From: Callorhinchus milii
Taxonomy: Eukaryota
Length of the DNA: 64,000 bases
Direction: 5' to 3'
Assembly: GCF_018977255.1 (NCBI RefSeq)
Contig: NW_024704742.1
Coordinates: 16,680,001 to 16,744,000, forward strand
Shown: positions 23,748-62,579 of the stretch, piece by piece
Layout of the letters: every line of letters begins with the position of its first letter
How positions within the stretch are numbered: position 1 is the first letter of the stretch
Notes under the pieces: model-generated
The model's input: the letters and a program-made list of their open reading frames with translations, nothing else
What the model was told of the DNA's origin: nothing
The model's database searches: none
Translations under genes and position numbers: made by a program

Positions 23748-24120
23748 TTAGTAATTTAAAGCCCTTTCTACCTCCCTATTTATTCGTGTAGCCAGGACAT
23801 TTGTCCCAGCCCTATGTAGGTGGAGCCCATTCCTTTGGAAAAGCTCCCATCTTCCCCAATACTCGTGCCAGTGGCCCATGAATTGGAATTCCTGCTCTCC
23901 GCACCACTCTTTTAGCCAGGCATTCAGATCTATGATCTTCTTTTGCCTGTACCAATTAGCTTCTGGCTCAGGTAACAGTCCCGATATCATCACTTTGGAA
24001 GTTCTATTCCTTAGTTTAATTCCCAATTCCCGGAACTCGCTCCTTAACTCGTCCCTACTGGTCCTACCAATGTCATTGGTCCCTATATGTACCATTACGA
24101 TTGGAAACTCTCCCTCATGC
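23748..24120 (-). pseudogene. CR1 ORF1 SGNH-esterase domain, C-terminal part
   Basis: HEGEFPIVMVHIGTNDIG...ISGLLP...NGLHLHRAG, typical of CR1 ORF1 esterase blocks. Confidence 0.88.
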
Positions 24121-24694
24121 TGTGGAAGGTGAATTCAGCACATTCTGCAAAGTTGGCAAATTAAGCAAGAGGCCAGGGGGCCCTGGCCTTAAGTGAAAAA
24201 TATGTTGTCATGAAGTTAGTCACAATGCTCGTGATTGGCATTGTTTAAGATAGATAAGCAGATGTCTGGTATCAGTACCGCATCCTGGAATCATGTCTGG
24301 AATCGGTTCTGGGTTTAGATAACGTTCAGCAGCTTCAGCATTTTCGCATTCTCTAAATGTCGTCTTTCTCTATATGTATCTAATCACGAGGGACAGAGTA
24401 ATTGTCTCCCAAAAACAGACACCCTGTCACGAGGCAGACTATATCGAAATGTAACCAATTTAGAGGGCCCCCTCGTGATTATTGATTGACGCATAGCTCG
24501 ATAAGATTTTGTATGAAGGTGAGGTGCTTGCTCCCATTTGGTGTGCAGTGTTGGGAGCATCATTAGTTGTTGCTACATTACTGTACCTCATATATATATA
24601 TGAAATTAAAGTGTGTTAAGTGAACGCCGCACTGACTCCGTTGTTGAGCCTCTGGTCTTCTGAGAGCAACCGCACATCGCAACTGGGTTCGACA
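24121..24694 (+). repeat. 5' LTR (574 bp)
   Basis: Begins TG and ends ...gggttcgaCA, 3 nt before the PBS. Contains a CCAAT near 24455 and an ATTAAA poly(A)-like signal at 24605-24610. Confidence 0.85.
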
Positions 24695-24697
24695 ATT

Positions 24698-24715
24698 TGG
24701 AGGTTCCACCGAGAT
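24698..24715 (+). promoter_or_regulatory. Retroviral primer-binding site complementary to the tRNA-Gln 3' end
   Basis: TGGAGGTTCCACCGAGAT, the 18-nt Gln-type PBS known from endogenous MLV-like proviruses, directly after LTR-terminal CA-att. Confidence 0.88.
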
Positions 24716-24780
24716 CGAAAGACTGGGTTTCTCCTTCGACTTCTCACGGCTCTTCGGACGCTCGGCACAAACATCGCGCA

Positions 24781-24789
24781 CAGGTAAGC
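24781..24789 (+). promoter_or_regulatory. Retroviral major splice donor in the leader
   Basis: CAG|GTAAGC, a near-consensus donor about 70 nt after the PBS. Confidence 0.65.
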
Positions 24790-25098
24790 ATTCTTACCAT
24801 TGTTTGTGTCTGATGTGTTGATGAGACGTGGTTGCCGAAGGACTCCTGGCCTCTTCGATTTAAGGTACAAAATTTGCGATTTGTTACACCTAAATAATTT
24901 CAGGCGGCTTAGTACTGTAAGGTATAGTACTTGGGTATAAGGAATTGGCCAGAGATACTATAAGAAATAGTATATAGACGTCTTAAGTAAAATAAAGTCT
25001 TGCATGCATAAGGAATCGGCCGTTGAAAATAGAAATAGATAATTGCTTGTATTTTGACTGTGTTGGGGCAACCACTTGTTTCGTTGTTAAACTATACC

Positions 25099-25436
25099 AT
25101 GGGACAATCATTTAGCTCGGCTAAAAAGGGCGATAAGGGACTCCAGCGGCTTAAATGGAAACCCATTTTGGCCAACACAGTGTTCGCTATCTGCGGAGCT
25201 GGACTAAATTAACTAAGGGTCAGCCTTGCTCCTGGCCTCCAGACGGGTTCTTTAATAAAGACCGTATTGCCGCTCTTCAGGCAGCGGTACATGCCAAATC
25301 GGAGCAGAGTGGGTGTGGTAGCAGTATCTGCAGGAAACATAACCTATCCCCACAAATAGCGGCGCTTAAAAAGAAACCAGAAAGAGGGGAAAGAGATGCA
25401 GCTGAGGAAGTCGCCCTCTTAACAGGATATAGGTGA
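25099..25436 (+). pseudogene. gag: Truncated gag (matrix region)
   Basis: accATGG Kozak context, MGQSFSS myristoylation-type start. A frameshift and TAA near 25140-25154 precede METHFG...WTKLT...WPPDGFF (WPxxGxF matrix motif). CA and NC are absent. Confidence 0.7.
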
Positions 25437-26154
25437 CGGTACGATTGAGGGTTATCATCAGTTTTTGGTAAATAGCGAATTACCAATTGATCTGTGTGGG
25501 CGAGATCTGCTCTGTAAAATGGGGATAATCATCCAATGTACCCCGGATGGCATTACCTTATTGGCACCCGAACGCGAATACCTAAAACTGTGCTCCTTGG
25601 TTTCTCCCAGCTCTCAGAAACTACAATCCCCAGGTTATTTTTGTTGGACATTGAAAAGGCCTGAGGTGTTATATTCTATCATGTTACTTTATGTTAGTGA
25701 GCCACTTCTTGAATGTTATTTTTTGGAGCATGTTTTAACACCACCTACTTCCCCATTGCATTGTACGGCCTTCTACGTCGACAACAAGGAAGTGGACATA
25801 ACTCGTTTCAAAGAGCATGTCGCGGTTGCTTCCACTATTCAGGCTCATTTCCTCTATTTGGGACCGCAGGGTATTGCAGCTGCATGTACTCTGATAACGG
25901 AGGAGCAGCTTTATTTTAAAGGTAATAATTCTGACCCTCATGTAACATTAAGAATAGCGGATGGGTTCAGCCCAAAGGACTTAGGGCAAATGGTCAGGAA
26001 TGCAAACTGGTCACCAAATTTCACCGAACTTTGCCCTGACATTTTATACGACCCGTGCTTGCGGATTTATAAACTGTGTATTGATCCCCTCTCACTTTTT
26101 ACCATGTTTGAGTTTATTCGGCACACTCACAATTCACCTTCCACAATGCCTTAA
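25426..26154 (+). CDS. Open frame: retroviral protease C-terminus followed by a CNPase-like 2H phosphoesterase domain
   Basis: HQFLVNSELPIDLCGRDLL is the protease tail. It is followed by GYFCWTL, LHCTAF (His 25759), FLYLGPQGIAAACTLITEEQL and PHVTL (His 25939), giving two HxT motifs 60 aa apart. The stop lies in the CR1 flank. Expression is unknown. Confidence 0.8.
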   Translation, partial: DIGDGTIEGYHQFLVNSELPIDLCGRDLLCKMGIIIQCTPDGITLLAPEREYLKLCSLVSPSSQKLQSPGYFCWTLKRPEVLYSIMLLYVSEPLLECYFLEHVLTPPTSPLHCTAFYVDNKEVDITRFKEHVAVASTIQAHFLYLGPQGIAAACTLITEEQLYFKGNNSDPHVTLRIADGFSPKDLGQMVRNANWSPNFTELCPDILYDPCLRIYKLCIDPLSLFTMFEFIRHTHNSPSTMP

Positions 26155-26263
26155 ATTTATTTCCAGCCCGGCGGTGACATCCTTCACCCTGGCCCCAGGA
26201 AGACAACAGAGTCTTCTTTTCTTCCTGCTACGGCTACAGAAAACTGTATCAGTCCTCCCGACT
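26146..26263 (-). pseudogene. CR1 ORF1 SGNH-esterase domain, N-terminal part
   Basis: Reverse strand reads GRTDTVFCSRSRKKRRLCCLPGARVKDVTAGLEINLRH. It joins in frame to EGEFPIVMVHIGTND once the insert and one ATGC are removed. Confidence 0.88.
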
Positions 26264-26324
26264 GAGATTTTTGAAGGGAAGCATCATGGCTGGTTTTGTT
26301 GTTCACTTTTGTTAAAAAAATTTA

Positions 26325-26418
26325 TGAATTATATATATAATTATATATATATATAATTATATATATATATATAATTATATATACAATATATATATATATA
26401 TAAAATTATATAATTTAA
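26325..26418. repeat. (TA)n microsatellite
   Basis: Imperfect TA repeats. Confidence 0.9.
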
Positions 26419-43987: not shown

Positions 43988-44308
43988 AGTCCTGTAGCTC
44001 AGTGGTTAGAGCACTCGCTTTGCAAGTGAGAGACCTGGGTTCAATTCCAGGCAGGGCGAAACCTTGGGCAAGTTTCCTTACTCCATACACCTAATAATAA
44101 TCCCTTCAAAACAAAACAATAATAAATTGGTCATTTTCAATCCATGACTGTTTGTGGGACATTGCTGTGCGCAATTGGCTGCCACGTTCGCCCACAAATA
44201 TACAGTCAATTAACTTTACAGTATATTCTGTGAAGCACTTTGGGACGTCTAGAAGACGTAAAAAGCGCTATATCAAATGCAAGGATTATTATTATTATTA
44301 TTATTATA
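43988..44308 (+). mobile_element. tRNA(Ala, TGC)-derived SINE, young full-length copy
   Basis: A box GTAGCTCAGTGG, anticodon arm ctcgc-tttgcaa, B box GGTTCAATTCC. L2-like tail ...AAATGCAAGGA(TTA)n. Near-identical to the copies at 53079 and 62255. Confidence 0.9.
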
Positions 44309-53078: not shown

Positions 53079-53400
53079 GGATTTTCCTGTAGCTCAGTGG
53101 TTAGAGCACTCGCTTTGCAAGTGAGAGACCTGAGTTCAATTCCAGGCAGAGGGCGAAACCTTGGGCAAGTTTCCTTACTCCACACAATGCCTAATAATAA
53201 TCCCTCCAAAACCAAAAACAATAATAAATTGGTCATTTTCAATCTACGACTGTTTGTGGGACATTGCTGTGCGCAATTGGCTGCCGCGTTCGCCCACAAA
53301 TATACAGTCAATTCACTTTACAGTGTGTTCTGTGAAGCACTTTGGGACGTCCTCCCGACATGAAAAGCGCTATATCAAATGCAAGGATTATTATTATAAT
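53079..53400 (+). mobile_element. tRNA-Ala-derived SINE, inserted in the tail of an older Deu-type SINE
   Basis: Same head, body and tail as the 43988 copy. Confidence 0.9.
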
Positions 53401-62254: not shown

Positions 62255-62579
62255 TAATAATAATAATAATAATAATCCTTGCATTTGATATAGCGCTTTT
62301 CATGTCGGGCGGACGTCCCAAAGCGCTTCACACAGCACACTGTAAAGTGAATTGACTGTATATTTGTGGGCGAACGCGGCAGCCAATTGCGCACAGCAAT
62401 GTCCCACAAACAGTCATAGATTGAAAATAACCAATTTATTATTGTTTTTGGTTTTGGAGGGATTATTATTAGGCGTGTGGAGTAAGGAAACTTGCCCAAG
62501 GTTTCGACCTCTGCTTGGAATTGAACTCAGGTCTCTCGCTTGCAAAGCGAGTGCTCTAACCACTGAGCTACAGGACTCC
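62255..62579 (-). mobile_element. tRNA-Ala-derived SINE, full length
   Basis: Reverse-complement copy with a (TAA)n tail at 62255-62277. Confidence 0.9.

Follow-up and report, generated by a model that had tools for sequence, protein, structure and literature searches.

The 64,000-nt stretch of the Callorhinchus milii genome analysed here (assembly GCF_018977255.1, NW_024704742.1, positions 16,680,001 to 16,744,000 of the forward strand; the whole stretch is referred to below as the window) contains a 2,025-bp retroviral insert (24121-26145), which has a single long terminal repeat (LTR) and terminates on the right in an inverted copy of its own left terminus. The insert is a defective class I (gamma/epsilon-like) endogenous provirus and a dead end, and on balance its unusual right end probably arose during reverse transcription, before integration. 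A priming error is the most likely source of the 15-bp inverted end.

A previous reading of the window from its letters alone (the sequence-only reading) had reported the length of the insert, its exact inverted ends of 15 bp and the tetranucleotide ATGC on both sides, all of which can be read directly from the DNA. The left end, TGTGGAAGGTGAATT, is the 5′ end of the unique 3′ (U3) region of the LTR, and the right end, AATTCACCTTCCACA, is its exact reverse complement over 15 of 15 bases, after which the complementarity breaks off. Both termini of the insert are U3 5′ ends in inverted orientation relative to each other, and each of them ends in CA beside ATGC. Only two sites in the window match the 15-mer with up to two mismatches (0.35 expected; two or more in 3 of 100 shuffles). 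The LTR itself has the 3′ end ...GGGTTCGACA, which is different from the right end of the insert, and both a polypurine tract (PPT) and a 3′ copy of the repeat (R) region are absent.

The state of the target site before the insertion is preserved in other copies of the host element, a young CR1-like long interspersed nuclear element (LINE), in which the insert lies antisense. All genome searches were performed on one assembly (991 Mb, 1,762 contigs), for which the best candidates were scored, so that the counts given here are lower bounds. The paralogous CR1 loci L041-L069 (98-99% identical) read CTCCCTC-ATGC-CTCAAATTT, with contiguous flanks and one ATGC in 29 of 29 cases. The 4-bp target-site duplication, which the sequence-only reading had described as clean, is real because ATGC is single and the flanks are contiguous in all of these paralogs, and their uninterrupted state means that exactly 2,025 bp plus the 4-bp duplication were added, with no other loss or gain of CR1 sequence at the site. 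In paralog L041, open reading frame (ORF) 1 on the minus strand is open through the insertion site and lies upstream of ORF2; the product of CR1 ORF1 belongs to the GDSL/SGNH type of esterases, with a match to Pfam PF13472 (E 1.7e-7) slightly below the Pfam cut-off. A 261-bp piece of the left flank showed 97-100% identity in all 40 scored genome matches (the best 40 of 377 candidates), and the host CR1 family was therefore active very recently.

Relatives of the insert (54 matches, from the best 40 of 97 candidates scored) define the regular ends of the family. All 25 LTR 5′ ends seen have the form TGTGGAA(G/A)G(TG/CA)AATT, and all 31 LTR 3′ ends seen, which include some rows from overlapping loci, have the form GGGTTC(G/A)ACA. 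Since the inverted motif occurs in none of these 31 ends, the right end of the insert is not the remnant of a 3′ LTR. The sequence-only reading had argued the same from the window, and had named parental 3′ LTRs ending in the inverted motif, i.e., a simple internal deletion, as the finding that would speak against its view; such LTRs were not among the 31. Each of 10 solo LTRs and each of 3 proviruses of the family is flanked by matching 4-bp duplications, and the 2,025 bp, bordered by the family's own duplication length, were integrated as one piece, as had been proposed. The class I traits are all present, namely, a TG...CA LTR, a primer-binding site (PBS) just past the unique 5′ (U5) region and a 4-bp duplication. 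The full-length relative L070 (C2:67543266-67552751, about 9.5 kb) encodes zf-CCHC, RVP, RVT_1, RNase_H, rve and MLVIN_C, i.e., a Gag zinc knuckle and an integrase whose C-terminal domain is of the murine leukemia virus (MLV) type, which bears out the earlier suggestion of an MLV-like integrase. From the exact 4-bp duplication we infer that such an integrase acted at this locus.

Measured against L070, two segments are missing from the insert, one of 88 bp and one of 1.8 kb in gag-pro, and the last 180 codons of the insert are predicted to fold as a 2H phosphoesterase; the gag′-′pro-2H layout of the sequence-only reading thus stands. The loci L071 (C1:81.37 Mb) and L072 (C5:55.7 Mb) are 97-99% identical to bases 855-2022 of the insert. 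Both start with a regular 5′ LTR. A regular 3′ LTR closes L072, and none was found for L071 within the 10 kb examined. The gag-pro-deleted lineage, recognizable by its GGATATA junction, is present at at least three loci (window, L071 and L072), a distribution that suggests a spread of the deleted genome by trans-complementation. The window copy is a mosaic: in bins of 100 bp, L019 is 95-99% identical over bases 1-400 and is the closest LTR relative among the matches scored, L073 and L074 reach 96-98% in parts of bases 500-900, and L071 and L072 reach 97-100% from base 900 onward. Template switching is therefore on record for the lineage of the insert.

The internal viral sequence at the break bears most directly on the origin of the right end. 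In 6 of 6 relatives examined (L071, L072 and four more distant copies), the region reads ...CACACTCAC AATTCATCTTCC up to the break and CATGTTCTGCC... beyond it, or a diverged form thereof, and then runs on into the polymerase gene; at the break itself, either AATTCATCTTCC is followed by CATG or (A/C)..ATCTTCC by a CATG-like tetranucleotide. The element AATTCATCTTCC, termed site X here, is native coding sequence between the protease and the reverse transcriptase (RT), and it agrees with the inverted U3 start in all but one of 12 positions. The inverted right repeat reported earlier is accordingly real, with 15 of 15 bases, but it was not wholly added, as 11 of its first 12 bases are native internal viral sequence. 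The window departs from X at position 26137, where it has C instead of the T of all six relatives, and at the terminal ACA, which is CAT in the relatives; in both places it has the U3 base. Apart from this, the copy resembles L071 closely (98.6% identity, 11 mismatches in 775 bases), and the last of the mismatches is the T-to-C change. Site X is the sole match of at least 10 of 12 positions to the inverted U3 12-mer in the 10 kb of L071 and of L072. In terms of duplex energy, the 3′ 12 bases of the U3 15-mer all pair with X, one of them in a G:U wobble, at -15.5 kcal/mol, which is rank 1 in L072. The U5 region does not explain the right junction, because just ACA could be U5, and the preceding 12 bases match inverted U3. 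Both other deletions in the window copy carry microhomology at their junctions as well (7 nt and 2-3 nt). Judged from these sequences, the break at X is no coincidence; the similarity appears to have guided the event, and the end is, or was copied from, U3 sequence. The template switch or mispriming that the sequence-only reading had considered is backed by the fact that a microhomology of 11/12 existed beforehand exactly at the break.

The most likely course of events starts from a parental RNA of the gag-pro-deleted, trans-complemented lineage, with site X in the coding region of the 2H domain. Plus-strand synthesis would begin at the PPT soon after the passage of the minus strand, at a time when the upstream RNA is still uncopied. 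A short plus-strand DNA (TGTGGAAGGTGA..., about 12-15 nt) would then leave its template, anneal to X on the uncopied plus-sense RNA and start a minus-sense strand through pro′, gag′, PBS, U5 and R. The bases brought along by the primer would account for the C and the ACA, the 5′ end of the primer would be the authentic U3 end, and the extension product would correspond exactly to the bottom strand of the window. Having reached the 5′ end of the RNA, this strand would pair with plus-strand strong-stop DNA, and run-off copying of both strands would yield a 2-kb duplex with a U3 attachment (att) end on each side, and integrase would process both ends and insert them in a concerted manner into CR1 ORF1 with the usual 4-bp stagger. 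In a variant of this scheme, the growing plus strand would switch templates at X, where 6 nt pair ahead of the diagnostic base, and continue on the 5′ end of a second plus strand. [quoted passage not shown] The most specific version, i.e., that the insert is a germ-line fossil of a released plus-strand initiation product of 12-15 nt, which re-primed on genomic RNA and gave rise to a short genome with two U3 att sites, is a tentative proposal, to which we give somewhat less than an even chance.

Several points weigh against an origin of the right end in reverse transcription by this route. The U3 start of L071 and L072 differs (TGTGGAAGGCAAATT; 13/15 positions), so that a mixed virion or a recombinant parent must be assumed. 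Among the best candidates scored, no closer LTR parent was found in the assembly than L019, which is about 91% identical overall and covers bases 1-421 only. When the duplex of the full 15-mer is considered, X is second in L071 and third in L072 (-16.4 vs -18.3 and -16.8); the sequences suggest that at the better-ranked sites the 3′ end of the primer would stay unpaired. The evidence for the 12-nt pause comes from HIV-1 and not from the present family, and the terminal ACA could equally stem from the U5 end (...TTCGACA). Mispriming by a nascent plus strand and a jump of the plus-strand 3′ end would leave the same bases, which do not separate the two, and we infer which strand switched.

The strongest competitor of a reverse-transcription origin with two U3 ends is a deletion reaching from X as far as the final three U5 bases, be it in the course of reverse transcription or following a normal integration, in which AATTCATCTTCC plus ACA would mimic U3 by chance and a later T-to-C change would complete the repeat. 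Given the U5 end ...TTCGACA, both the ACA and the ATGC duplication would survive such a deletion, and only such a mimic would be integrated or noticed. Internal-to-3′ LTR deletions are common in HIV-1 (24 of 88 proviruses in the excerpt of PMC9278108), and scattered substitutions are present in the window (11 of 775 positions vs L071). However, the breakpoint would have to fall exactly beside the sole 11/12 match to inverted U3 in about 10 kb, the junction would be devoid of microhomology, unlike the two other deletions of this copy, and one specific substitution would have to be the one that happens to perfect the repeat. A junction placed within the shared TTC predicts G where the window has C and requires a second change. 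We regard this deletion as unlikely. Still less probable is a one-ended integration, in which integrase joined the U3 end, host repair joined a broken end at X and the repeats are fortuitous. In Rous sarcoma virus, host machinery reportedly can join a mutated or truncated second end after integration of the first (cited in PMC12657518, excerpt), but here the duplication has exactly the 4 bp of the family without CR1 loss or gain, the end is exactly ...CA, and the match to U3 is 15/15, including two places at which the insert is unlike all six relatives.

An artefact of assembly or sequencing, i.e., a chimeric join at the right junction, would be conceivable insofar as both the CR1 and the ERV (endogenous retrovirus) sequences are repeated in the genome. 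Four runs of one study contain 0.44-0.48 of the words sampled from the stretch, a figure that is not specific to the junction. A chimeric join would not, however, yield a base-exact 4-bp CR1 duplication or a terminal CA with U3-type bases, and we consider it very improbable. Two further routes were rejected. Autointegration would put inverted U3 next to sequence downstream of the target, with more than 15 bp of U3, and is further contradicted by the identity with L071, which extends right up to the repeat; post-integration recombination between inverted repeats would invert the interval and not delete it.

The sequence-only reading had also considered an amplifying, non-autonomous family resembling miniature inverted-repeat transposable elements (MITEs), which would have moved through the 15-bp inverted ends. 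This explanation is hardly credible: inverted ends and a duplication are present and the gag-pro-deleted lineage occupies at least three loci, but its other copies start with a normal 5′ LTR, to which L072 adds a normal 3′ LTR, and the junction is single-copy in an element without PPT and 3′ R. With up to one mismatch, the 18-base junction had 9 matches in the genome versus 7 for the reversed control, and the 8 outside the window are unrelated sequence. The 15-mer has 32 exact genome copies (18 forward and 14 reverse; controls 2 and 2), among which the pair in the window is the only one that converges within 12 kb. On the evidence of this one assembly and of the best candidates scored in it, the idea of a MITE-like family was dropped. 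Because it lacks PPT and 3′ R, the window element cannot replicate again; the insert is a single dead-end event and neither a MITE-like family nor a new kind of mobile element.

With respect to the wider ERV family, some additional observations were made. The duplication ATGC of the insert is shared by L070, which resides at a separate locus; 13 other duplications were seen, and the agreement looks like chance. The flanks of L072 (positions 1110 and 9825) have ATGGG on both sides, which would be a 5-bp duplication or an extra A kept at U5, compared with 4 bp in 13 other members. In the env region of L072 (around 8544; 7435 from the LTR start) and of L071 (reverse strand, around 9714), the sequence CC(C/T)TTGCCTTCCACA is found, an inverted near-copy of the U3 start TGTGGAAGGCAA... 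of these two elements themselves. Same-strand pairs of LTR starts about 4.45 kb apart (C4:36621701/36626151 and C4:36940830/36945269; the pairs are 319 kb apart) may be short proviruses, perhaps within a segmental duplication.

The Pol of this ERV family contains a CNPase-like 2H domain of 180 residues between the protease and RT, and the window copy keeps, of Pol, just the tail of the protease and this domain. Copies were found in the window (25603-26142, plus strand), in L070 (3927-4478) and in L071, L072, L073 and L075. The HCT and HVT motifs are invariant in 6 of 6 family copies, and H53 and H113 are conserved in at least 90% of 35 rows. A structural model built from the six family rows and 29 remote homologues reached a predicted local distance difference test (pLDDT) score of 87.3, compared with 39 from 6 sequences only. 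Its top Foldseek matches were CNPase catalytic domains (mouse, E 5e-8, template modelling [TM] score 0.70), with 51 matches at E ≤0.001, and the Atlas features for the domain pointed to PF08302 and PF22547 at 0.93-0.95. No match was obtained by Pfam, by PDB sequence search or by a word-indexed protein search. A profile search retrieved 59 homologues at E ≤0.001; among 20 that were scanned with Pfam, 9 were Pol-like (protease and/or RT), 10 had no family and 1 had a weak unrelated match. The modelled fold together with the two HxT/S motifs makes the domain a predicted member of the 2H superfamily. Among the papers listed by a literature search, none, judged by title and the beginning of the abstract, dealt with a 2H phosphoesterase domain within the Pol of a retrovirus. 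Some RNA viruses have 2H proteins that act on 2′-5′ oligoadenylate or cyclic phosphates, and by analogy the Pol domain might act on such substrates.

The features of the insert and its host element are compiled in the table. The gag remnant listed there was not assigned to any family by the Pfam scan. Elsewhere in the window, an AT-rich imperfect (TA)n/(TATAA)n microsatellite (26313-26415) lies just past the CR1 5′ region, and ARAGORN reported three tRNA-Ala(TGC)-like sequences (43989-44058, plus strand; 53083-53154, plus strand; 62505-62578, minus strand), which may be tRNA-derived short interspersed nuclear elements and not genes.

Table. Positions in the window of the retroviral insert, its termini and the surrounding CR1 element
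Feature	Position	Strand	Evidence or remark
Host CR1 ORF1 (esterase type), downstream half of the split ORF	23748..24120	-	ORF list, Pfam, paralog L041
Left target-site duplication, ATGC	24117..24120	.	Single in 29/29 paralogous CR1 copies
Single LTR, 574 bp, TG...CA, mosaic of lineages	24121..24694	+	Family proviruses and solo LTRs have the same termini, TGTGGAAGG... and ...GGGTTCGACA
U3 5′ terminus, left att end, TGTGGAAGGTGAATT	24121..24135	+	Directly 3′ of the polypurine tract AAAAGGGAGGAG in 3′ LTRs of relatives
PBS, 18 nt, 3 nt past the terminal CA of the LTR; presumably for tRNA-Gln	24698..24715	+	Identical sequence in L070
N-terminal gag remnant (MGQSF...)	25099..25369	+	Two overlapping frames, ORFs 25039-25212 and 25155-25436
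Junction of the 88-bp deletion, particular to the window copy	25369..25370	+	Microhomology of 2-3 nt (TAA/AA); the 88 bp are kept in L070, L071 and L072
Junction of the 1.8-kb gag-pro deletion	25425..25431	+	Microhomology of 7 nt, GGATATA; common to L071 and L072
C-terminal remnant of the protease region	25432..25602	+	In frame with the 2H domain; aligns just after/within RVP residues 21-115 of the L070 pol ORF
Predicted 2H phosphoesterase domain of Pol, CNPase-like, with two HxT motifs	25603..26142	+	Reading frame open up to the end of the insert
Right end, inverted U3 terminus on internal site X	26131..26145	-	U3-type bases at 26137 (C) and 26143-26145 (ACA)
Right target-site duplication, ATGC	26146..26149	.	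Single in 29/29 paralogous CR1 copies
Host CR1 ORF1, upstream half of the split ORF	26146..26283	-	ORF list, paralogs including L041

The insert is an aberrant defective provirus and thus of a known kind, in a form that was not found described. Colicelli and Goff are said to have reported in 1988 (J Virol 62:633) a Moloney murine leukemia virus (MoMLV) provirus with inverted LTRs that was integrated through two U3 sequences; this case reportedly involved whole inverted LTRs in a laboratory setting and showed that integrase can use two U3 ends in vivo. Both integrated ends are inverted U3 termini in the MoMLV provirus and in the window, and the integrase is of the MLV type in both, whereas the window copy has only 15 bp of U3 on an internal microhomology and is a natural germ-line copy. 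In vitro assays of concerted integration make use of mini-donor DNAs with two U3 ends, for which short identical viral ends suffice, the substrates being artificial. A natural provirus with a 15-bp inverted U3 right end on an internal microhomology was not found in the literature searched, a search outside of which most subscription journals lay.

The insert is a rare natural record of a reverse-transcription error with three breakpoints that are all still readable: two deletions at microhomologies and one end placed by microhomology, which integrase accepted nonetheless. It lends support from a wild germ line to points known mostly from the laboratory, namely, that integrase can use two U3 ends and that very short att sequences are enough; if true, 15 bp of U3 would be sufficient for concerted integration in the germ line of a natural host. 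As a single, non-replicating copy it opens no major question.

Among defective proviruses of HIV-1, those with asymmetric LTRs or with deletions into the 3′ LTR have been ascribed to faulty strand transfer in reverse transcription (Joseph et al. 2022, PMC9278108; Hardy et al. 2025, PMC12657518; both in excerpt). Like the insert, as far as these excerpts go, they retain their 5′ LTR intact, with the 3′ LTR damaged or missing; unlike the insert, which ends in U3, they either retain a U5 end or have no proper terminus. A right end formed by an inverted U3 terminus is not described in the excerpt of PMC12657518, where the stem "invert" is absent, or in the few passages on inversion in PMC9278108. 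Solo LTRs and truncated ERVs resemble the insert in that one LTR is left, but a solo LTR has the termini of its LTR at both ends (10 of 10 here), and genomic truncations do not keep a duplication beside a new att-like CA end. With MITEs and DNA transposons, finally, the insert shares terminal inverted repeats and a short duplication; it differs from them in its retroviral content, in a repeat that is an integrase att site, in its single copy and in the absence of any transposase logic. In genome annotation, inverted ends and a duplication do not by themselves make a single-LTR ERV a new class of transposon.

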